Assembly: GCA_019347805.1 (NCBI GenBank) | Contig: JAHWKR010000010.1 | Location: 3,364-67,363, forward strand | Direction: 5' to 3' | Source of the DNA: Methanobacteriota archaeon | Lineage (GTDB): Archaea > Thermoplasmatota > E2 > JACPAO01 > JAHWKR01 | DNA: 64,000 nt | Part shown: piece by piece, positions 6,159-17,325 of the stretch | Layout: each line of letters begins with the position of its first letter | How positions within the stretch are numbered: the stretch's first letter is position 1 | Notes under the pieces: model-generated | The model's database searches: none | Seen by the model: the letters and a program-made list of their open reading frames with translations, nothing else | What the model was told of the DNA's origin: nothing | Translations under genes and position numbers: made by a program

Positions 6159-6893
6159 CTAGGCCTCGGGCTCGAGTCCTTCCAGGGTGAACTCGAAGCG
6201 GGTCTTGTCCTTGCCTTTCGATCTCGTGCCGAGGACCTGCAAGCGGCCGATCTCGTCGGTGTTGCGGACATGGGTTCCAGCGCAGGGGCAGATGTCGAAG
6301 TCCTTGATCTCGATGACGCGCAGGTCCTCGATATGAGCGGGGATGAGGTCGAGGTTGGAGCGTTCCGGTTTGACGCGCTCCATGAGGCGTGTCCGGGCTT
6401 CGGTGTAGCAGTCGATAGAACGCTTGGAGGCGATGACCTGGTTGGCGTCCTCCTCGATCTGTACGAGGTCCGTCGCGGAGAGGGCGTCGAGGGAAAAATC
6501 GATGCGGGAGCGTGAGCGATGGATCTGGTTGCCGACGGTCCTTGCACCGCCGAATAGATCGTAGACGAGGGCCGAGACGAGATGCTGGGCGGTGTGCATG
6601 CGCATGTGGGCGTAGCGGCGCTCCCAGTCGACGAGCCCGGTCACCTTGGTGACCTCGTCGGGGACGTCCCCTTCGATGTAGTGCCGCACCTCGCCCTTCT
6701 TCTTGACGTCGCGTACCCGGACCGCCCCGTCGTCGTGGTGCAGTTCTCCGACATCGTGCTCCTGGCCGCCCCCCGTCGGATAGAATGCGGTGCGGTCGAG
6801 GACGAGATAGTCGTCGCCGCGCTTGACGACCTTCGCAGTGAAGTCCTTGAGGTAGTTGGCGTCGATGTCCGGCATGTGGAGCTGGAGGGTCAT
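6159..6893 (-). CDS. alaX: AlaX-type tRNA editing protein (alanyl-tRNA synthetase editing-domain homolog)
   Basis: Carries the zinc-binding motifs HTAQHLVSAL (HxxxH) and CPCAGTHV (CxxxH). Start chosen at MTLQLHMPD (6893). The ORF track extends to 7079 through a poly-C tract, and an alternative start is MEGAQQ at 6959. Confidence 0.75.
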   Translation of the reverse strand: MTLQLHMPDIDANYLKDFTAKVVKRGDDYLVLDRTAFYPTGGGQEHDVGELHHDDGAVRVRDVKKKGEVRHYIEGDVPDEVTKVTGLVDWERRYAHMRMHTAQHLVSALVYDLFGGARTVGNQIHRSRSRIDFSLDALSATDLVQIEEDANQVIASKRSIDCYTEARTRLMERVKPERSNLDLIPAHIEDLRVIEIKDFDICPCAGTHVRNTDEIGRLQVLGTRSKGKDKTRFEFTLEGLEPEA

Positions 6894-7080
6894 GCTGGCG
6901 ATGGCGGCTATCCCCCGGCGACCGGAAAAGGTTCTCGCCTCCTGTTGCGCTCCTTCCATGACGGAACCATCACGCTTATATGGGTAGCAGGTTTCGAAGG
7001 AAATCCCCCCACTTGGGCCCGCCGCTCCCCCCCCCCCCCTCGCGGCGGGCCCATTCCCCTTCACCTCCTTTCTTGACACC

Positions 7081-7153
7081 GGGCTCGTGGTCTAGCGGTC
7101 ATGACGGCGCCCTTACAAGGCGCAGGTCACCGGTTCAAATCCGGTCGAGCCCA
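7081..7153 (+). tRNA. tRNA-Val (anticodon TAC)
   Basis: Cloverleaf can be drawn by hand: acceptor GGGCTCG/CGAGCCC, anticodon stem GCGCC/GGCGC with loop CTTACAA, T-arm ACCGG-TTCAAAT-CCGGT, discriminator A. No encoded CCA. Confidence 0.85.
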
Positions 7154-7410
7154 TTCTACACGCTGCGCCTAACGGCGCAGATGCGTGGTATCTGGTCCCG
7201 ACCGGTGTCGCTCGCTGTCGCTCGCGATCCGGTCGAGCCCATTCTACATGCTGCGCCTAACGGCGCATCTGCGTGGTATCTGGTCCCGACCCGTGTCGCT
7301 CGCTGTCGCTCGCGATCCGGTCGAGCCCATCATACACGCTGCGCCTACTCTCGCGGGTGTCGTGGTCAGCCGGTCCCGACCGGTATCGCTCGCACGAGAG
7401 GATCGGTGAC
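7141..7410 (+). repeat. three tandem ~88-bp units, each beginning with the 3' end of tRNA-Val (atccggtcgagccca)
   Basis: Units at 7141-7228, 7229-7316 and 7317 to about 7400 (the third diverged). Each contains the hairpin ctgcgcctaacggcgcag. The repeated peptides seen in ORFs 7185..7409 and 7273..7491 are translations of this repeat. Confidence 0.8.
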
Positions 7411-7537
7411 GTAGCACAGATCCGGCCGGCCTTTTCTTCTCGTTCCCTCTCCTTGGCGCGGCGTCAGGCTCTTAAAGGGGACCCTTATTGAGCGGCATCG
7501 TCCCAGGAGGCGACCACCCTCCTTGGTGTCTTCTCGC

Positions 7538-7610
7538 AGCCCCGTAGTGTAGTGGTCAATCATGGTGGACTCTGGATCCGCCGACAGCGGTTCGAATCCG
7601 CTCGGGGCTA
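7538..7610 (+). tRNA. tRNA-Gln (anticodon CTG)
   Basis: Acceptor AGCCCCG/CGGGGCT, anticodon stem GTGGA/TCCGC with loop CTCTGGA, T-arm AGCGG-TTCGAAT-CCGCT, discriminator A. No encoded CCA. Confidence 0.8.
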
Positions 7611-7750
7611 TGAATCGCCGCCGGAGGCGGCTCTATACCCCCGGCGGCTGTTTCATTCCGGCTCGGGGCTATGGTTCGCGCGAGGGCGCGCTCCATATCC
7701 CCGGCGGCTGCTTCGCTCCGGCTCGGCCCGATTCCTCATGATACCGCACT
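7597..7750 (+). repeat. tandem ~60-bp units repeating the 3' end of tRNA-Gln (tccg(g)ctcggggctatg)
   Basis: Two additional copies of the tRNA 3'-terminal 14-16 nt plus about 45 nt of flank follow the tRNA (a unit starts near 7657 and another near 7717, the latter partial). They appear as the repeated peptide ARG..PYPRRL..SGS in ORF 7552..8148. Confidence 0.7.
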
Positions 7751-7833
7751 TCCAAAACCGCCCGTTCGGGATGGACCGCCGAACCTCCCCTCCCCCCTTC
7801 CTTTATGCCCTTCCGTCGCCCCTGCGCTCTTCG

Positions 7834-8350
7834 ATGCGCCCCCTCCTTGCCGTCCTCGTCGCCGTCGCGGTCGCTGTCGCCGGTTGTGCGACGGAAGAGA
7901 AGGACGACCAGGACCCGACCGGTTCCTCCGGTGACCCGGCTGTGAACAACACCACCTCGGCTCCTGTGGTCTTCAAGGGCGAAGGTCAGGTGACGGCGGG
8001 GGCGGTCGGGGCTTCGCTCGGTTCGGGCGGTGTGGAGTTCACCGTCGAAAGCGGTGCGACCTTGTTGTTCGCGGAGCTGGCGTGGGACGACGAGGTGCAG
8101 GACCTGGACCTTTCACTCTCTTCGCCGTCGGCAGTCCGCGGCCGGTGAAACGAGTTACGACCACAGCGCGGATGGCGGTAGACCGGGCGCGCCGGACAAC
8201 CCTCATTCGCTCACTATCAAGACGCCCGAAGCGGGCGATTGGCTCGGTGGGGCGTCACCCAACGGCGCCACAGGGACGGTTCCCTATCGCATCGCGGTGA
8301 CGGTCTTCTACGAGGAGACGGCCGTCCCTGAGGGCTACTCGGCGCTCTGA
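7834..8350 (+). pseudogene. secreted lipoprotein with a pre-peptidase C-terminal (PPC)-like domain, interrupted by a +1 frameshift near 8140
   Basis: Signal peptide and lipobox MRPLLAVLVAVAVAVAGC. Frame A ends ...DLDLSLSSPSAVRGR* at 8148. Frame B continues ...ETSYDHSADGGRPGAPDNPHSLTIKTPEAGDWLGG...VPYRIAVTVFY to 8350. Together they resemble one PPC domain (DLDL.L..P.G...a..G.y.i.V.gy). Confidence 0.5.
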
Positions 8351-8387
8351 AAAAAGGAAAGGGAGGAGAAGACGGTCGGATCCTTGC

Positions 8388-8594
8388 TCACCGCTGCACG
8401 GTGAGGTTCTCGAGTTCGCGTTCGATCTCGTTCTGGCTTTTCCCGGTCTTCTCCTTGATGATGCCGACGAGTTTCTCGGCGTTGCCTTCGGCTTGTTTCA
8501 GTTCGCTGTCGGTGACCTGGCCCCAACGTGCCTTGATCGCGCCCGTGAACTGGTCCCAGTTGCCTTCGATCTGTTTCTTGGTGCCTTCCTTCAT
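8388..8594 (-). CDS. CsbD-family general stress protein
   Basis: 68 aa, MKEGTKKQIEGNWDQFTGAIKARWGQVTDSELKQAEGNAEKLVGIIKEKTGKS, a typical CsbD repeat. The longer 132-aa ORF extension was rejected. A T-rich tract follows the stop. Confidence 0.8.
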   Translation of the reverse strand: MKEGTKKQIEGNWDQFTGAIKARWGQVTDSELKQAEGNAEKLVGIIKEKTGKSQNEIERELENLTVQR

Positions 8595-8955
8595 AGTGTC
8601 ACCTTCAGACCCGCTCGTGGCGATGGCAGTTAAGACTTGGTGGGAGCGGCGGAAGACATGTCGCGGCGGTCGGCGGGGAGCGTTGTCTTGTCGTCCCATA
8701 CACTGTCGCAACACATGGCATCCGCCCTCTCTGGCATCCCATGGTCGAGTCTCGCGGACCACCCGAAGGCGTCCACGAATGGGCATGTCTTCGCGATATG
8801 ATTATATGGACCGCGTCCGCTTCACTGCCTGGTGTCCCTTCATGGGCCTCCTCGAGGATGGATGTGCGCGCGTCCGGTGCGTCCTTTCTTCGGGTGGTCT
8901 GTCCCTTTCCGAACGCTGGCGCGGGATCGGTGACGGACGCAGGACAGGAATTGCT

Positions 8956-9666
8956 ATGGTGGCGATGACAGACGAGGTGGACTCCGAACGGCTCGGGCGC
9001 GTCATGAAGGCGCTCGCCAACCCGGTGCGTGTGGATCTCTTGAAGGCCCTGCGTTCGCCGAAGACCATCACCGAGATCCGGTTGCATCCGCGCAGGAAGG
9101 ACGGCAACCTGCACCCGGAGCGCGTGATGAGCCGCGTCACGGTGCGTGAACATCTCGTCCAGCTGCTCGACATCGGTGTCGTGCAGGCGCGCCGGGCGAC
9201 CCGGGAGGGACGGACGGTCGATGTCTATATTGTCAACCATCGTCAGCTCTTCGCCTTGACCGAGGAGTTGCGCCAGCTCGCCGAGCTGCGGCCGGACGGC
9301 CAGACCGTGGGGGACGCGACACAGGAGGACCCGGTGGAGCCACCGCGGTTCCCGGAGGGCCCCAAGCTGGTCCTCGCGGGCGGCATCCCGAAGGGGCGCG
9401 TCTTCCCCTTGAACGGCGACGGGGAACGCTGGCGCATCGGTCGTCATCGTGGTGCCGAGGTCTGGCTCGATTACGATCCTTATCTGTCGTCGGAGAACGC
9501 GGAGGTGGTGCGCACGCGCAAGGGCTTCGTGCTGCACGACCTCGGCCGGTCCAGGAACGGCACCTACCTGAACTGGGAGGAGCTTGCGCGTGGCGCCGAG
9601 GCGCCGCTCAGTGACGGTGACCTCATCGGTGTCGGGCGCTCTGTGCTCGTTTTCCGTTCCCGCTGA
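8956..9666 (+). CDS. transcriptional regulator with an N-terminal ArsR-type wHTH and a C-terminal FHA domain
   Basis: HTH region LANPVRVDLLKALRSPKTITEI. FHA region WRIGRHRGAEVWLDYDPYLSSENAEVV...LHDLGRSRNGTYLN...LSDGDLIGVG (G-R, S-x-x-N/H and NGT motifs). The 8401-8955 part of the ORF is antisense to csbD and was rejected. Confidence 0.7.
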   Translation: MVAMTDEVDSERLGRVMKALANPVRVDLLKALRSPKTITEIRLHPRRKDGNLHPERVMSRVTVREHLVQLLDIGVVQARRATREGRTVDVYIVNHRQLFALTEELRQLAELRPDGQTVGDATQEDPVEPPRFPEGPKLVLAGGIPKGRVFPLNGDGERWRIGRHRGAEVWLDYDPYLSSENAEVVRTRKGFVLHDLGRSRNGTYLNWEELARGAEAPLSDGDLIGVGRSVLVFRSR

Positions 9667-11842
9667 GATCGCGTTGCACCTCGGCGAGCGCGTCACGGAA
9701 CGCCGGTGCGTTGCGGTCGCGCCGTTGCGGGTCCTTGGCGAGCGCTTTCTCGAGCACCGGCCGTAAGGGATCAGGGACGCCGTCGAGGGACGGCGGTCCG
9801 CCTTCGATGATGGTCTTGCGCACGTCCCAGTCGAGCAGGTGCTCGGGGACGAGCGGGTCACCGGTGAGGCATTCGTAGAGGACGACGCCGGTCGAGTAGA
9901 TGTCGCTCGATGGGGCGGTGGGGAGGCCGCGGGTCTGTTCGGGGGACATGTAGCGCAGGGTGCCCGGTTGGCTGCCGGTGCGGGTCGGGTCGCCGAGGGT
10001 GGTGTCGGGCGCGGCGACGTGCGCGGTGCCGAAGTCGGCGAGACGCGGTGTGCCGTCTTCGGTGAAGAGGATGTTGGAAGGCTTCACGTCCCGGTGGACG
10101 ACCCCTGCCTTGTGGGCGGTGTCGAGCGCTTCGAGCACCGCCATGGTGACGCGGATCGCCTCGTCGGCGGGCAATGGACCGTTTTCGGCGATGCGGCTTT
10201 TGAGCGAGCCCCCGCCGAGGTGCTCGTAGACCAGGACCGGTTCGCCGCGCACCTCTTCCGTGGCGATGAAGCGGACGATGTGCGGGTGCTGCAGGCGTCC
10301 GACGGCGTAGGCCTCGCGCAGGAGGACCCGCCGCGCGTCGCGGTCGATGCGGTGGGTGCGTTTGAGGACGACGGTGTCGCCGGCGACGACGTCATCGGCG
10401 CGATAGACGGTGCCGGTGCCGCCTTCGCCGATGACGCCCTCGATGCGGTAGCGGCCGCCGATGGTCTGTCCTGGGATCCAGTCGCGCGTCTGGGGCACCT
10501 CCGACCAGCGCGAGCGCACCGCCCAGGCGAGCGCGGTGTGCTGTTCGTCGGAGATGCCGAGGTTGGCGCGCATGCGCGCGAGCGCGTCGTCGCTCTTCGG
10601 GTCGAGGTCGCCCTCGCTCATGGCGCCTTCGAGCGAGGCGACGTAGCGTTCCACGGCGTCCCGTTGCGATGCGCCCGCGGCGTCGAGAGGGGCGGGAGCG
10701 ACGGCGCGGAACGGATCGGTCATGAAGTAGGGGCGCAGCGCGAAGACGAGACCGCCGGCGATGGCGACCGACAGGATGGCGGCGATGACCTCGGCGACGA
10801 CACCCGAGCCGGGCATGAGCGTCAGGAAGAGCGGCCGCATGCCGGGGAAGAACGCCACCGCGGCGAGCAGTCCGAAGAGCGACAAGGCGAAGGCGGGGGC
10901 GCGCAGACGGGGGCTGTCGAACTGGTAGCGCAGCACGCCCATCCAGAGCAGTGCGGGACGGACGGCGACGACGTCGAAGTAGATCCAGAACGTGAACGGG
11001 GCGACCACGGGGCGGAGCGTCCGGCTGAGGATGCCTTCCATGACACCGAGGAAGAGCAGGAGGATGACGAAATCGATGCTGGTATGATGGGCGGGCGGTG
11101 CGCGTTCACGGGCGCGCACAAGATAGGCGATGGCCCAGACGAGGGCGACGAGGTTGGCGAGGAGGAGGAGGCTCCAGACCAGGTAACGCTGGTTGCCGGG
11201 GACGAGGAGACCGGCGACGCCTTCGGCGCGCAGGATGTTGCCGAGCGTGCCGCTGTAGAACGCGTCGAGAGGGATGAAGGTGGCCATGTGGGCGGCACGG
11301 ATGCCGAAGGCGGCGAAGACGAACTGGAACTGGCGGCGGCGCACGGGGGAGGTCTCGTGCGGCAGGAGGAGCGTCCAGCGCCACAGGACGGCGATCCAGC
11401 CGCCGATGGCCACGAGGTCCATGAAGAGGAAGCCGGGGATGGAGCGGGCGTGGGCGGTCAGGTAGCCGGCAGGATCGGTGGGATAGAGGGCGAGGAGGAC
11501 GACGGCGGGGACGAAGACGAGGGCGCGCAGGAGCCAGGGGTGGCGGCGGAACGTCGCGACGCGCGTCGGATAGATGAGGGCGAGGTAGAGGATGAGGAAG
11601 CTCGTCGTGGGGTCGAACCAGGTCTTGGCGCGCGTGCCGACGAGCGACCAGTGGGTGCCGCGGGGGAAGCCGAAGGTGAAGGCCCAGCCGAGCGCCGTGG
11701 AGGCGTTGAACGCGAAGAGCAGGGCGAGGACCCAGCTCAGTTCACTGCGTGGCCGCTTGACGATGAGGAAGACGGCGAGTGCGTACTGGATGAACGCCGA
11801 AAAGACGTAGAACCCCGAGGTCGCGTTCCAGTCGAAGGCCAC
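9623..11842 (-). CDS. membrane-anchored Hanks-type Ser/Thr protein kinase (about 10 TM helices followed by a C-terminal kinase domain)
   Basis: Kinase motifs are GEGGTGTVYRA (Gly-rich loop), VLK (Lys), HRDVKPSNIL (catalytic loop), DFG and SPE. The N-terminal half is polytopic membrane. Start is uncertain, with GTG at 11842 proposed. The ORF-track extension to 12109 would overlap the divergent BNR gene's promoter. Confidence 0.8.
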   Translation of the reverse strand: MAFDWNATSGFYVFSAFIQYALAVFLIVKRPRSELSWVLALLFAFNASTALGWAFTFGFPRGTHWSLVGTRAKTWFDPTTSFLILYLALIYPTRVATFRRHPWLLRALVFVPAVVLLALYPTDPAGYLTAHARSIPGFLFMDLVAIGGWIAVLWRWTLLLPHETSPVRRRQFQFVFAAFGIRAAHMATFIPLDAFYSGTLGNILRAEGVAGLLVPGNQRYLVWSLLLLANLVALVWAIAYLVRARERAPPAHHTSIDFVILLLFLGVMEGILSRTLRPVVAPFTFWIYFDVVAVRPALLWMGVLRYQFDSPRLRAPAFALSLFGLLAAVAFFPGMRPLFLTLMPGSGVVAEVIAAILSVAIAGGLVFALRPYFMTDPFRAVAPAPLDAAGASQRDAVERYVASLEGAMSEGDLDPKSDDALARMRANLGISDEQHTALAWAVRSRWSEVPQTRDWIPGQTIGGRYRIEGVIGEGGTGTVYRADDVVAGDTVVLKRTHRIDRDARRVLLREAYAVGRLQHPHIVRFIATEEVRGEPVLVYEHLGGGSLKSRIAENGPLPADEAIRVTMAVLEALDTAHKAGVVHRDVKPSNILFTEDGTPRLADFGTAHVAAPDTTLGDPTRTGSQPGTLRYMSPEQTRGLPTAPSSDIYSTGVVLYECLTGDPLVPEHLLDWDVRKTIIEGGPPSLDGVPDPLRPVLEKALAKDPQRRDRNAPAFRDALAEVQRDLSGNGKRAQSARHR

Positions 11843-12096
11843 ACTTCCCTCTCCGCCACCACACAGGGCGTAGGGGAGGAAAGTTCCTGCCCAGGTATTT
11901 GTTTTGGGGTGGGCCTTGATGGTCTCACACTTTACCCTATACCTCCAAGGATGCAGGGCCCGCCTTCGTGGCACCCGCGGTCGGGAGGGGTCGCCGCCCC
12001 TCCCGTTCCCTTTTCCCGGACCCCTTCTGCGTGGTGCAGGGGACCCGGTCCACGGAACCCTTTTCAAGACTTTTCTTCGTCTGTGGCCGAGCCGCC

Positions 12097-13632
12097 ATGC
12101 GTCCCGCACTGCTCCTTGCCCTGGTCCTCCTCGCCCTCCCCTCCCTCGCGGGCTGCCTCGATGACGCGGTGCCGAGCCGTGACGACGGGGCCGACGAGCT
12201 CCCCCAGCCGTTCCCGACGCTGCCCGACGATGTGACCCCCTTCAGCCGGATGCTGTGCGATGGCGACACGCTCGCGTCCTTCAAGGAGGTGCGCGAGGAT
12301 GGTTGCAACGTGCATGTCACCGCCGAGAGCGGCCCGGCCGCCGAGGTGTCCCTCGCGGTCGACCCCACCGACCCGCTCGCCCTCGTCGGTGGCAGCAAGG
12401 ACTTCTCGCTTGGTATGGACGAGCGCTGCGGGAAGTACAACGTCTGGTCGGGCGTGCATGTGAGCCATGACGGCGGCCGCACCTGGACGCACGACCTGTT
12501 GCCGGGCCATCCCGGTGATGACCGTGAGACCGCGCTCAGTGTGTACGCCTGCGGCAGCGATCCGGTGGTCGTCGTCGACCCGAACGGCGTGTTCTACTAT
12601 GTGAGCATCCATTTCACGGCGGACCCCGAGGGGGACGATCCACCGGTCGCCGAGTTGGGGCCGGTGTGGGGCTCGTCGCTCCTGAACGCGGGGTTGGCGG
12701 TGACGCGGAGCCTCGACCAGGGCCGCACGTGGGAGGACCCGGTGGTGCTCGTGCACCGCGAGGATGGAAGCCTCATCGACAAGGAATGGGCCGCGGTGGA
12801 CGCCACGACCGGGAGCGTCTATGTCTCCTATCTCGACACGGGCGACGGCGCGTTCTATGTGCAGCGCAACGACGACGGCGGCGTCACATGGGACGGTCCT
12901 TTCCTCGTCGATGCGGGCGAGGACGGCACGCAACAGTTCGGTCAGGTGGCGGTCGACCCCGAAGGCGTCGTCCACTTCACCTACTGGTCGACCGACGACG
13001 GGAACGATGTCAGCGCGGTCTATCATCGCTCGAGCGCGGACCACGGCCGGACGTGGAGCGAACGCGGCCTCGTGGTGCCTTTCGTGCCGGTCTTCGACTT
13101 CGGTTTCACGCACAAGTACCGCATCGTATCGGCCCCGGCGCTCGCCGTGGACCCGGTGGTCGGGACGCTCTACGTCGCATATCCGTCTCCGGCGGCGATG
13201 CGGGGGACGGCGACACCGGCTGGGTACCTGGACCTCTACATCACGGCCTCCAGCGACGGCGGCCGGACGTGGAACGACCCGGTGCGGGTCAACGACGAAC
13301 GCGCGGCGCCCCTGAACGGCCAGGCCCTGCAGACCCTCGCCGTCGGACCTGACGGCATCGTGCACACCACCTGGCTCGACTATCGGCACGATCCCAGCGG
13401 TCAGTGGTCCTACCTCTACTATGCTTACTCGACGGACGACGGTGTGACCTGGTCGGAGAACGCCCGCGTGAGCGATGTCCCGTTCGACGGCACCGGCGGC
13501 TACCACCAGTCGGGCTCGGGGACGATCGGGGACTACAACGGCCTCGCCGTCTCGTCCGAGGCGGTGCACGCGTTCTGGGCCGACACGCGATATGGGCGCA
13601 ACGACGTGTTCAGTGCCACGATCCTCGGGTAG
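12097..13632 (+). CDS. BNR/Asp-box repeat lipoprotein (sialidase-like beta-propeller)
   Basis: Signal peptide and lipobox MRPALLLALVLLALPSLAGC. At least six Asp-box repeats (SHDGGRTW, SLDQGRTW, NDDGGVTW, SADHGRTW, SSDGGRTW, STDDGVTW). Confidence 0.8.
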   Translation: MRPALLLALVLLALPSLAGCLDDAVPSRDDGADELPQPFPTLPDDVTPFSRMLCDGDTLASFKEVREDGCNVHVTAESGPAAEVSLAVDPTDPLALVGGSKDFSLGMDERCGKYNVWSGVHVSHDGGRTWTHDLLPGHPGDDRETALSVYACGSDPVVVVDPNGVFYYVSIHFTADPEGDDPPVAELGPVWGSSLLNAGLAVTRSLDQGRTWEDPVVLVHREDGSLIDKEWAAVDATTGSVYVSYLDTGDGAFYVQRNDDGGVTWDGPFLVDAGEDGTQQFGQVAVDPEGVVHFTYWSTDDGNDVSAVYHRSSADHGRTWSERGLVVPFVPVFDFGFTHKYRIVSAPALAVDPVVGTLYVAYPSPAAMRGTATPAGYLDLYITASSDGGRTWNDPVRVNDERAAPLNGQALQTLAVGPDGIVHTTWLDYRHDPSGQWSYLYYAYSTDDGVTWSENARVSDVPFDGTGGYHQSGSGTIGDYNGLAVSSEAVHAFWADTRYGRNDVFSATILG

Positions 13633-13805: not shown

Positions 13806-14663
13806 ATGGACGACGAAGACGATGAGCGGACGCCAGGCCACACGGCGGCGTCCGTGGAAGGACCGCCGCTTTGGAGCGCGTGGCGCGCGCAAGACACGCA
13901 CGGCGCGCCCGGGGCCACGACGGAGACGTTCCCGCTCGGGTTGCCGGTGCTTTCGGGCGCCGACGGGGCACCGGCCGGTACGACCACCCTGCTCGAGGTC
14001 GGCCACATGTGGTCGCTCCTGCGCCACCGCATGGTGCTCGAGGCCTACCACCGCGGGCTTCCGGTCCTCCAGCTCGTCGGCGGCCACCGTCTCGACCCGT
14101 ACGGCCTGGCCCGTGCCGCGCGGGCCGCCGGCGAGGACGCGGAGGAGGTGCTCGGCCACGCGCAGGCGGCACGTGCCTTCACGGTGCATCAACTCTCGGC
14201 GTTCGTCGAGGAGGAGTTGCCGCGTCGTCTCAGCGGACCTGCGCTCGTCGTCCTCTCCGACCCGCTCGCGCTCTACGCCGGTGGCGAGGTGGAAGAGGAG
14301 GAAGGCCGGCGGCTCCTGCGTCGCGCTTTGCGGCGTTTCGTGCGCGCGGTCGCCGCGGCAGGCGCCTATGGTGTCGTCGCCGAGCGGCCGTTCGCGCGTG
14401 ACGACGCCGGTCGTGAGCTCTTGCGTCTGGCACGCCATGTCCAGGTGCGGCCGGCGGACGGCGGCATCGTCGCTGATGTCGTCCACAGCAAACGGCGCCT
14501 GCTGCAACCGACGGCACGGCCGCAGGCGCGCCTGGCCGACTATGGGGTCCAGGACCTCGGCCCCAGCCTGGTCGCGCTCCCGGAACCGGTCGCCACCGTG
14601 CGCGGTCCCCACTTCATGACCGGTCGTGTCGGGCATCTCAAGGTGCTCGCGGAGGGGATCTGA
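13806..14663 (+). CDS. hypothetical protein with a RecA/KaiC-like motif layout but a degenerate P-loop, 285 aa
   Basis: LGLPVLSGADGAPAGTTTLLEVG resembles the RecA-family L-helix plus P-loop but lacks the GKT lysine. ALVVLSDPLALYAGG resembles Walker B (hhhhDS). Its stop overlaps the next ATG (TGATG at 14660-14665). The fold assignment is inferred from motif spacing only. Confidence 0.45.
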   Translation: MDDEDDERTPGHTAASVEGPPLWSAWRAQDTHGAPGATTETFPLGLPVLSGADGAPAGTTTLLEVGHMWSLLRHRMVLEAYHRGLPVLQLVGGHRLDPYGLARAARAAGEDAEEVLGHAQAARAFTVHQLSAFVEEELPRRLSGPALVVLSDPLALYAGGEVEEEEGRRLLRRALRRFVRAVAAAGAYGVVAERPFARDDAGRELLRLARHVQVRPADGGIVADVVHSKRRLLQPTARPQARLADYGVQDLGPSLVALPEPVATVRGPHFMTGRVGHLKVLAEGI

Positions 14664-14986
14664 TGGGCCGCACGTTGCCGACCTTCCGGCGTGTCATCGA
14701 CGAGGAGGAGCGGCGCTGGAACGACCTGCGGCGCGGGCTCGGTCCGGAGGCGCAACGCGCTTTCGACGCGGTCTTCCAGCGCGCGCGGCGTCATGCCAGC
14801 GCGGCGGGCAACCAGGGCGTCGTCGAACCGATGTGGGCCATCATGCTGACGGTGCTCATCGAGAACGAGATGGAGCTGCAACGGCTCCTTGCGCGTGTCG
14901 CCTGGTTGGAGTCGGAGCTGGAGCGCAGGCCGCACAGCGAGACGTTCTATGCACCGGTCGTCGAGGACGAGGGCTGGGCGCCGTGA
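14663..14986 (+). CDS. small alpha-helical hypothetical protein (107 aa)
   Basis: The ORF is bracketed by translational coupling on both sides. Its ATG overlaps the upstream stop. Its TGA overlaps the GTG of the polB-like gene (GTGA at 14983-14986). Confidence 0.45.
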   Translation: MGRTLPTFRRVIDEEERRWNDLRRGLGPEAQRAFDAVFQRARRHASAAGNQGVVEPMWAIMLTVLIENEMELQRLLARVAWLESELERRPHSETFYAPVVEDEGWAP

Positions 14987-17325
14987 GCGCGACCGAGGGG
15001 CATCTCATCGATGTCCACCCGGACGGCCAGGGCCGCATGGTCTCCTGGGTGCGCACGAAAGAAGGTGTCGCACGTTTCGTCGAGCCGTTCGTGCCACGCT
15101 TCCATGTGCATGCGTCCGAGGCGGATCGCCGGCGGCTCACGCGTCGCCTGGCGCACCTGGACGGCCGGCTCGGGCTTTCGACGGTGCGGGCGCGCCTCGG
15201 CCTTGCGCGTGGCAAGACGGAGGTGCTCGAGGTCGCCGTGCCACATCCGCTCGTTCTGCGCGAGGTGGCGCAGGCGGTCGATCGCTGGGGCGAGCATCGC
15301 GCCTACGATCTGTTCGATGTCGACCTGCGCGACAGCCATCGCTATCTCCTTGCCAAGCGGGTGTTCCCGTTCGCGCGCGTGCGTGTCGCCCAAGAGGGCC
15401 GGAACGTGTCGATGGAGGCGTTAGACGGCCAGTGGGACCTGGCGCCGGAACCGCCGATGTTGCGCACGCTGACCTTGTCGGCGGAACTCGATGCCCCGAC
15501 CGGGATCCCGGAAGGCCCGGCCCACCCGGTCCGGCGTGTGCGGCTTGGCGACGAGGAATACCGCGGCGACGAGGTCGCGGTCTTGGAAGGGTTGCGCGAA
15601 GGCCTTCTGCGGCTCGACCCTGACGTGCTCCTCACCCGCTCCGGCGACCGGTTCCTTTTCGGCTATCTGCGGGCGCGGGCGAAGGCCAACGGCATGCGTC
15701 TGCGTTTGGGGCGTGACCCGGACCCGAGAGGCCCGGCACGACGCGGCCGTACGTTCTACACCTATGGCATGGTCAAGTGGCAACCACCGGTGGAGGTCCT
15801 GCATGGACGCATCCATCTCGATGTCGCCTCCAGTTTCTTCCATCGTGAATCCGGTCTTGGCGGTCTCGTGGACCTGTCGCGTATCTCGTCGTGTCCGTTG
15901 CAGGAGCTTGCGCGGCTCGGCCCGGGGACGGCGGTGACGGCGGTGCAGATCGACCGCGCCAAGCGCGAGGAACGGCTGGTCCCGTGGAAGAAGAACCTGC
16001 CGGAGACGATGAAGTCGGAGCGTCGGCTCGTCGAGTCGGACCGTGGCGGTTTCATCCATGACCCGTCGGTGGGGCTCTTCGACGATGTCGTGGAGCTCGA
16101 TTTCTCGTCCATGTACCCGAACATCATGGTGACGCGCAACGTTTCACCCGAGACGGTGGGATGCATCTGTTGTTCGCCGTCGACGCCGGGTGCATCGGTC
16201 GTGCCGCAGGTCGGCTATCTCACCTGTCGGCGCCCGGGGTTCGTGGGGCGTTCCATCAAGCCGCTCGTCGCGCGCCGGGAGTCGTTCAAGCGGCTCATGA
16301 AGAGCGACCCGAAGGACCGGGCGAGATGGCAGGGCGCGTCGGACGCGTTGAAGTGGCTCCTGGTCTGTTCGTTCGGTTACCAGGGGTATCGCAACGCGCG
16401 TTTCGGACGCATCGAATGCCATGAGGCGATCTGTGCCTGGGGTCGGGAGATCCTCTTGACGACCGGCGAGGTGGCGCGCGAGGAGGGCTTCGAGACGTTG
16501 CACGGCATCGTCGACAGCCTGTGGGTCAAGCGTCTTCGCAAGGACGCGGACGCGGAGCGTCTGTCGCGGCGGGTGTCGAAGGAGGTGGGCATCCGGTTCG
16601 ACATCGAGGGGGCGTTCGACTGGATCGTCTTCCTGCCGACGCGGGGGCACGACGCGACGGGGGTCGAAGCGGTAGGGGCCATGAACCGGTTCTACGGCAA
16701 GTTCTCCGAGCCGCCGGCGAAGAAGGCGCGTAGCAACGCGGGCCAGAGTCCGGACCATCTGGCGGGGGGTCAGCTCAAGGTGCGCGGGGTCGAGATGCGG
16801 CAGCGCAGCGCGCCGGGGATCGTGCGTCGGGCGCAGGAGGCGTTCCTTTCCGCGGTCTTTCCGGCAACGGACGCGGCGGGGTTCCGCGCGCTCCTTCCCG
16901 AGGCCATCGAGGCGGTGCGTCCGGTCGTCGAGGAGTTGCGTTCGGGGGCGGTGCCGCTATCCGACCTGTTGGTGCAGAAGACGGTGGGGCAGCCGCTTGC
17001 CGAGTACCGCATGGAGACGGAGACGAAGAGCGCCCTGCGGCTCTTGGCGCAGGCGGGGGTGCAGGTGCCACCGGGCGACGTGGTGCGTTATGTCGTTCTG
17101 GATGGTCGCGCCAAGACGCCGGAGCGGCGGGTCGTCGAGGAGCGGGTGATGACGGGTGACGAGCACTATGATGTCGCGGCGTACGAGACGTTGCTGTTCC
17201 GTTCCCTTGAGAGTCTCTTGTTGCCGTTCGGGTGGGACCTTGCGCGGATGCGCGACCACTTTTCGAATGCGCCGCAGGCGCGTCTGGATCGCTATGGGGT
17301 GGAGGCGGTGCGTGTCAGGTCTTGA
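14983..17325 (+). CDS. family-B DNA polymerase paralog with degenerate catalytic motifs (predicted inactive)
   Basis: Motif A is intact (DFSSMYPNIM). Motif B is recognisable (KWLLVCSFGYQGY). Motif C YGDTDS is replaced by HGIVDS. Exo II FDF is replaced by FLF (LTRSGDRFLFGYL). Exo I is D-V-D (LFDVDL). GTG start at 14983. Confidence 0.75.
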   Translation: MSATEGHLIDVHPDGQGRMVSWVRTKEGVARFVEPFVPRFHVHASEADRRRLTRRLAHLDGRLGLSTVRARLGLARGKTEVLEVAVPHPLVLREVAQAVDRWGEHRAYDLFDVDLRDSHRYLLAKRVFPFARVRVAQEGRNVSMEALDGQWDLAPEPPMLRTLTLSAELDAPTGIPEGPAHPVRRVRLGDEEYRGDEVAVLEGLREGLLRLDPDVLLTRSGDRFLFGYLRARAKANGMRLRLGRDPDPRGPARRGRTFYTYGMVKWQPPVEVLHGRIHLDVASSFFHRESGLGGLVDLSRISSCPLQELARLGPGTAVTAVQIDRAKREERLVPWKKNLPETMKSERRLVESDRGGFIHDPSVGLFDDVVELDFSSMYPNIMVTRNVSPETVGCICCSPSTPGASVVPQVGYLTCRRPGFVGRSIKPLVARRESFKRLMKSDPKDRARWQGASDALKWLLVCSFGYQGYRNARFGRIECHEAICAWGREILLTTGEVAREEGFETLHGIVDSLWVKRLRKDADAERLSRRVSKEVGIRFDIEGAFDWIVFLPTRGHDATGVEAVGAMNRFYGKFSEPPAKKARSNAGQSPDHLAGGQLKVRGVEMRQRSAPGIVRRAQEAFLSAVFPATDAAGFRALLPEAIEAVRPVVEELRSGAVPLSDLLVQKTVGQPLAEYRMETETKSALRLLAQAGVQVPPGDVVRYVVLDGRAKTPERRVVEERVMTGDEHYDVAAYETLLFRSLESLLLPFGWDLARMRDHFSNAPQARLDRYGVEAVRVRS

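Follow-up and report, generated by a model that had tools for sequence, protein, structure and literature searches.

A convergent gene pair at positions 8956 to 11842 of a 64,000-nucleotide stretch of a Thermoplasmatota genome (assembly GCA_019347805.1, contig JAHWKR010000010.1; the whole stretch is hereafter called the window) encodes a putative DNA-binding regulator with an FHA domain and a polytopic membrane Hanks-type Ser/Thr kinase. We consider it probable that this locus is one copy of a two-gene module composed of a membrane sensor kinase and its cognate phosphothreonine-dependent regulator, which would operate like a two-component system that signals through Thr. All function of the module is inferred from sequence, and both phosphorylation and DNA binding are predictions. 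The regulator gene (8956..9666, + strand), defined from the list of open reading frames (ORFs), its translation, Pfam, and an AlphaFold model, encodes 236 residues arranged as an ArsR-type winged helix-turn-helix (wHTH), a variable linker, and a C-terminal FHA domain. The kinase gene (9623..11842, − strand) encodes 739 residues from a GTG start (MBW3582330.1). An earlier note on this DNA, made from the letters and the ORF list, had described the two genes as convergent with a 44-bp overlap at 9623-9666, which the ORF list and translations confirm, and had proposed that they form a phospho-dependent transcription switch. That proposal is now well supported comparatively, because the FHA assignment, the linkage, and the co-evolution of the two genes all hold, and we continue to treat it as a prediction. 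Absent from the earlier note were the multi-copy nature of the family, a conserved Thr in the regulator linker, and the kinship of the kinase membrane domain to a histidine-kinase sensor.

Adjacency of the regulator and kinase genes is far beyond chance, and the module recurs in soil Thermoplasmatota archaea. The regulator family forms about 50 clusters in a collection of 5.8 billion proteins, and all of the clusters that carry an organism name come from Thermoplasmatota-type metagenome-assembled genomes (MAGs). A scan that took one genome per species yielded 58 loci, and a kinase ORF lies within 600 bp of the regulator gene for 43 of 60 full-length regulators in Thermoplasmatota MAGs. A further 10 of the 60 have a Hanks kinase within 5 kb, and 4 are too close to a contig end for linkage to be called. 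Nearly all of the linked kinases have a polytopic N-terminus followed by a C-terminal kinase domain. On metagenome contigs, the two genes are adjacent in 16 of 30 cases, most of the remainder being too short to judge. The closest orthologue of the window kinase, which was reached independently, also lies convergent to an FHA gene, with an overlap of 56 bp. The earlier note had staked its proposal on conserved linkage in related genomes, and such linkage is what these genomes contain. Clustering of all ORFs within 6 kb of the module genes returned no third conserved gene, only the regulator and kinase families and their antisense shadows. One regulator-kinase pair resides in a MAG labeled "Proteobacteria bacterium" (locus L039; JAJPHT010000013.1, a 163.8-kb contig), and several other MAGs with the module are labeled Halobacteriales. 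A further candidate module kinase, P0053, was rejected as a bacterial kinase beside a sigma factor.

The module is present in several copies per genome, with 8 copies in the MAG DASYRW, 7 in JBFJVP, and 5 in JAIVGT, and the two genes have diversified together. The distance matrices of the regulators and of the adjacent kinase domains correlate with a Mantel r of 0.81, a value reached by none of 5000 permutations. When partners were shuffled within genomes, the mean r was 0.46 and 0.81 was reached in 0 of 5000 shuffles. Within DASYRW alone, r is 0.94 across 7 of its 8 pairs, and the nearest relative is identical in the regulator and kinase trees in 26 of 48 cases. The matrix correlation, including its behavior under the within-genome shuffle, therefore argues that pairs duplicate and diverge as units, which indicates that the linked genes are cognate signaling partners that co-duplicate.

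The regulator's C-terminal half contains both a predicted phosphothreonine reader and a candidate residue for it to read. The FHA domain (residues 137-234; 9364..9657, + strand) matches Pfam FHA (PF00498) over residues 159-227, scoring 42.2 bits where the cutoff is 20.7, and the predicted phosphothreonine-binding residues R163, S178, and N201 (9442, 9487, and 9556) are invariant in 48 of 48 relatives. In the AlphaFold model, the domain is a beta-sandwich for which Foldseek returned OdhI, GarA, DgcB, and EmbR, with E values down to 1.9e-9. The closest of these structures are OdhI and GarA (target TM-score 0.86-0.92, identity 33-34%); the best FHA match in NCBIfam, FhaB/FipA, is far under its cutoff. 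The FHA assignment, whose failure in a profile search the earlier note had named as grounds for abandoning its proposal, thus holds in profile and fold searches alike. Between the FHA domain and the wHTH lies a linker (residues 110-136; 9283..9363, + strand) whose sequence varies among relatives except at T122 (codon 9319-9321), its single conserved residue, which is Thr in 45 of 48 regulators and Ser in 1 of 48. The conservation of this candidate phospho-acceptor suggests a phospho-switch like that of GarA and OdhI, in which T122 would be phosphorylated. We consider that logic apt because the FHA domain is most like those of GarA and OdhI, its binding triad is intact, and a dedicated kinase is encoded next door.

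The N-terminal domain of the regulator (residues 8-109; 8977..9282, + strand) is assigned as an ArsR-type wHTH from the AlphaFold model and a family profile. The regulator model, built from an alignment of 33 sequences, has a predicted local distance difference test (pLDDT) score of 89.7 and a winged-helix topology, with helices at residues 10-20 and 23-31, a short helix after them, a recognition helix at 60-73, wing strands at 76-83 and 86-93, and a further helix at 95-109, the counterpart of the C-terminal dimerization helix. A profile of approximately 105 N-terminal residues from 24 relatives matches at least 20 solved chains of the ArsR family, the best being 2oqg (E = 3.7e-7); ArsR, HlyU, NolR, NmtR, SmtB, CadC, and CzrA are among the other structures matched. 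H66 in the recognition helix is invariant, and the H66-L signature is kept. The profile alignment to ArsR structures places an insertion of about 10 residues ahead of the recognition helix, and in the model this place is taken by a basic loop, about 19 residues long (41-59), where a short helix would be usual. This loop, encoded at 9076-9132 (+ strand) with the sequence RLHPRRKDGNLHPERVMSR, is present in most family members and missing in a minority subfamily (P0045, P0046, and P0048); it may provide an additional DNA contact or a docking site. Residues 1-110 of the regulator contain no Cys, so the protein lacks a thiolate metal site and, with it, the metal sites of classical ArsR proteins. 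The regulator has the ArsR fold and is yet not a classical metal sensor.

The kinase domain (residues 465-738; 9629..10450, − strand) is PknB-like and intact by its catalytic residues, and we predict that it is active. Its Pfam Pkinase score over residues 465-708 is 153.2 bits, the cutoff being 31.7, and K494, E510, H583 and D585 of the HRD motif with the Arg between them, N590, D603 of the DFG motif, and E635 of the SPE motif are invariant in 31 of 31 kinase relatives. The earlier description of a polytopic membrane Hanks kinase with an intact domain is thus correct as to the kinase domain, and the membrane helices described below agree with it. The AlphaFold model of the kinase has a pLDDT of 89 and a predicted TM-score (pTM) of 0.88, and its kinase domain is nearest to PknB, PknA, and Stk1 (TM-score 0.84-0.86 by Foldseek). 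Two threonines stand between the DFG and SPE motifs, T615 in the activation loop (9998-10000), which is kept in 24 of 31 relatives, and T628. Matches in NCBIfam to PknB_PASTA, MADS6, and lanthionine synthetases were set aside, as they are far below their cutoffs and reflect the kinase domain alone. Preceding the kinase domain is a cytoplasmic three-helix juxtamembrane linker (residues 388-443; 10514..10681, − strand) with the consensus VYRAALE...L..LR..LG....H. This segment of the window kinase matches no Pfam family; in one relative, it gave a weak match to TerB (E = 5.5e-4).

The N-terminal membrane domain of the kinase (residues 1-373; 10724..11842, − strand) has 10-12 helices, with 9-10 hydrophobic segments seen by hydropathy and 12 helices placed by AlphaFold within residues 7-373. 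An exhaustive phmmer search over 1.84 billion representative proteins recovered 37 relatives of this domain, of which 26 contain a kinase domain and the remainder are short. We read the domain as distantly related to HisKA_7TM (PF16927), the seven-transmembrane (7TM) sensor of haloarchaeal histidine kinases (PMC5847659), to which it is linked through its relatives; the membrane domain of the window protein itself has no Pfam match, and none to HisKA_7TM even at E ≤ 1. One relative (L046) matches HisKA_7TM with 37.3 bits against a curated cutoff of 28.6, and a second (L002) is borderline at 28.1 bits. The profile of the window's own subfamily aligns the latter end to end (E = 5.5e-14), and iterative profiles join 57 of 65 membrane domains, with zero matches among shuffled controls. 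Foldseek searches with the full kinase model returned matches for the kinase domain and none for the membrane domain, and the membrane-domain profile found chance-level matches only among PDB sequences.

From these features, we can propose how the module might work. A signal at or in the membrane would be sensed by the polytopic domain and would activate the kinase, which would autophosphorylate on its activation loop, with T615 as the candidate residue. The regulator would then dock through its FHA domain onto the phosphorylated kinase and be phosphorylated on T122. Phospho-T122 would in turn be bound by an FHA domain, which could be its own, in cis, as in GarA and OdhI, or, as in TIFA and DgcB, one reached in trans inside an ArsR-type dimer or from one such dimer to another. 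The resulting change in dimer geometry or oligomeric state would alter DNA binding and transcription, with the flanking secreted-protein genes and the module pair itself as candidate targets. In an alternative arrangement, the FHA domain would only tether the regulator, itself unphosphorylated, to the autophosphorylated membrane kinase, from which it would be released on dephosphorylation so that it can bind DNA, or the reverse, and T122 would owe its conservation to something else. FHA domains do dock on phosphorylated kinases, the binding triad here is intact, the activation-loop Thr is conserved, and sequestration of this kind explains linkage and co-evolution equally well. We nevertheless consider it unlikely, as it leaves without explanation the conservation of T122 in a linker that otherwise varies freely, and as kinases phosphorylate GarA and OdhI, whose FHA domains are the nearest to this one.

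Several observations weigh against the phosphothreonine-switch reading that we prefer. On the DNA-binding side, the wHTH of the single regulator sequence reaches 18.8 bits with HTH_20, for which the cutoff is 27, and the ArsR models of NCBIfam are far under their cutoffs; because the domain does not pass HTH_20 by itself, DNA binding is deduced from profile and fold together. The ArsR-wHTH half of the earlier note's assignment therefore stands by profile and fold and falls short by the single-sequence search. No operator-like inverted or direct repeats were found upstream of the regulator and kinase genes. On the phosphorylation side, the residue at position +3 from T122 is variable, being Asp in the window and often Leu elsewhere, and the His position of the SxxH motif is occupied by Asn in the window (N181) and in 26 of 48 regulators, with His in 21. 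Only about 15 residues separate T122 from the FHA domain, and so binding of phospho-T122 in cis is perhaps sterically tight. At the level of the genomes, 3 of the 60 regulators have no kinase despite at least 3 kb of flanking sequence on both sides, and the module neighborhoods yielded neither a conserved phosphatase gene nor one for a vWA protein, the missing phosphatase being the part of this result that counts against the reading.

The overlap of the two genes raises the question of whether they are also coupled through antisense transcription, as the earlier note had suggested. The regulator ORF ends in TGA with its last base at 9666 (+ strand), and the kinase stop occupies 9623-9625, read as TCA on the + strand, such that the 44-bp tail-to-tail overlap (9623..9666, both strands) would make the two mRNAs mutually antisense and let each limit the expression of the other, by antisense action or by transcriptional interference. 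There are 21 convergent genome loci, 17 of them with an overlap, and their gaps lie between −98 and +26 bp; there is no intergenic room for a terminator, and a TTTT run lies inside the overlap. However, the same two proteins are encoded by about 11 co-directional and about 6 divergent loci, the overlaps are as short as 4 bp and as long as 98 bp, and in 4 convergent pairs there is none. The 44-bp length recurs 6 times, because conserved FHA codons create an antisense stop: the motif GD[LV]IG (GDLIG in the window) places the reverse complement of a stop, TCA, across its [LV]-I codons, which are L223-I224 here. The kinase tails within the overlap are unconserved, its RNA structure is nothing unusual (z = −0.83), and it has no Rfam match. 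Since orientation and length vary and the tails are unconserved, antisense coupling is not a conserved feature, and we judge it very improbable as an account of the locus. We conclude that the overlap results from the close packing of convergent genes in a GC-rich genome (63-71% G+C across the window, with archaeal genes) and is not a conserved regulatory device. Still less credible is a role for the FHA protein as an adaptor or scaffold close to the membrane, like mycobacterial FhaA and FipA, with its wHTH used for protein contacts, or a role for the kinase in anti-phage defense. The subthreshold HTH_20 score and the FhaB/FipA match would favor the former, and PADLOC matches of PD-T4-6 and mad6 to the kinase domain and weakly of Csa3 models to the wHTH the latter. 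On the other side, many solved repressors of the ArsR family are matched by the N-terminal profile, and the H66-L signature is invariant; the PADLOC kinase matches are restricted to the generic kinase domain with no linked defense genes; and the 5-8 copies in a genome, which have diversified and all bear a membrane sensor domain, suit signaling better than defense. The PADLOC call of a defense system was accordingly rejected, as its matches amount to generic kinase-domain or wHTH similarity.

The general principle of an FHA-bearing regulator under a Hanks kinase is already known, and the GenBank names of both genes are generic. Myxococcus, for example, has FHA-bearing enhancer-binding proteins under Hanks kinases. 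EmbR and PknH of Mycobacterium tuberculosis, whose genes are adjacent, likewise combine a winged-helix regulator that has a C-terminal FHA domain with a membrane Hanks kinase. EmbR (PDB 2fez and 2ff4), the first of whose structures is present among our FHA fold matches, differs in having an OmpR/SARP-type winged helix and a BTAD domain, and PknH differs in that it has just one membrane helix, with its sensor outside the cell; the two form one bacterial pair and not a multi-copy family. GarA and OdhI, with the kinases PknB and PknG of Actinobacteria, share an acceptor Thr in a flexible N-terminal segment that is bound by the protein's own FHA domain, whereas they lack a DNA-binding domain and control metabolic enzymes. 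Their acceptor is an ETTS motif in an N-terminal tail, some 30 residues away from the FHA domain, unlike the candidate acceptor here, a single interdomain Thr at about 15 residues. Among archaea, ArnA (ST0829) and ArnB with the kinases ArnC and ArnD of Sulfolobales provide an FHA repressor under Hanks-type kinases (PMC5007285, PMC6509490, PMC10470591). ArnA, however, joins a zinc finger to its FHA domain and has a vWA partner, in one system per genome, and ArnC and ArnD are not polytopic and have no one-to-one adjacent pairing. EspM of mycobacteria and the eukaryotic forkhead factors FOXK and Fkh1/2 also combine an FHA domain with HTH or winged-helix DNA binding (PMC7002343, PMC11326605), but in these proteins the FHA domain is N-terminal and DNA binding is by unrelated families, and none has a membrane kinase of its own encoded beside it.

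The module most invites comparison with His-Asp two-component systems, which also place a membrane sensor kinase beside a cognate DNA-binding regulator and exist as many co-evolving paralogous pairs. The comparison extends to the haloarchaeal HisKA_7TM histidine kinases, as some kinases of the family have a membrane domain that this Pfam model recognizes. Pfam searches of the regulator, the kinase, and the 31 kinase relatives found no HisKA, HATPase, or REC domains, and in the module it is Thr phosphorylation (predicted) that would be read by an FHA domain, so we regard the module as an analogue of these systems and not a member of them. Three features set the module apart: the ArsR-wHTH-linker-FHA arrangement of the regulator, the kinase's polytopic 7TM-type sensor, and the many co-evolving one-to-one pairs; we found no published description of a wHTH-FHA/polytopic-kinase family in the literature.

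The surroundings of the pair offer candidate targets. Upstream of the regulator gene and divergent from it is a gene for a CsbD-like small stress protein (8388..8594, − strand; Pfam 61 bits). The 360-bp spacer between the two contains ATTATATGG, a TATA-like element near 8801. The CsbD-like gene is a possible target of the regulator and lies outside the conserved module. Divergent from the kinase gene on the other side is a gene for a secreted BNR-repeat lipoprotein (12097..13632, + strand) with a signal peptide and an LAGC lipobox. At other loci, Kelch propellers, multicopper oxidase, and DUF3224-like secreted proteins are encoded beside or between the module genes, and in one subfamily, genes for secreted proteins are placed between the regulator and kinase genes. 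Such flanking secreted proteins may be targets or extracellular partners of the module. Farther away, we read the ORF at 14626-17325 as a family B DNA polymerase, judging from the translation alone. In GenBank, the regulator is annotated as an "FHA domain-containing protein" (MBW3582329.1) of 233 residues from the ATG at 8965, versus our 236 residues from the ATG at 8956, which is preceded by AGGA and is as plausible a start; the "serine/threonine protein kinase" MBW3582330.1, from the GTG at 11842, is identical in length to our ORF. An Rfam search over 6500-12500 found two tRNAs and nothing else. The first, tRNA-Val(TAC) at 7081-7153, is followed by 2.9 copies of an 88-bp unit (7139-7393, 88% matches) that begins within the tRNA 3′-end, and only one intact copy of the tRNA is detected by Rfam; the repeat may represent repeated integration-site (att) duplications or copies of the tRNA 3′-fragment. 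The second, tRNA-Gln(CTG) at 7538-7610, is followed by 2.1 copies of a 60-bp unit (7600-7726) that likewise starts in the tRNA 3′-end.

Membrane-to-transcription signaling in archaea is poorly understood, and Thermoplasmata are nearly devoid of classical two-component genes, 11 sequenced genomes together having 3 histidine kinases and 4 response regulators (PMC5847659). The recurrence of the pair and the co-diversification of its two genes suggest a Ser/Thr counterpart of two-component signaling. We tentatively raise the further idea that a lineage of soil Thermoplasmatota, which would be largely without His-Asp systems, may have arrived convergently at a "phosphothreonine two-component system" made of insulated pairs that multiplied by co-duplication and that have a sensor domain in common with haloarchaeal histidine kinases. 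The "receiver" of the regulator would then be the FHA domain together with the linker phospho-Thr. Regardless of how that idea fares, the family is a source of numerous natural pairs of kinase and regulator in which both the acceptor residue and the reader pocket are predicted. It opens to direct study the questions of whether pathways built on Ser/Thr kinases can be insulated and one-to-one, as those of two-component systems are, of how pairing specificity is encoded if an FHA domain reads the signal, and of whether His and Ser/Thr kinases can exchange a sensor domain. For annotation, it provides a name and a rule for genes that are now called just "FHA domain-containing protein" or "ArsR family regulator".

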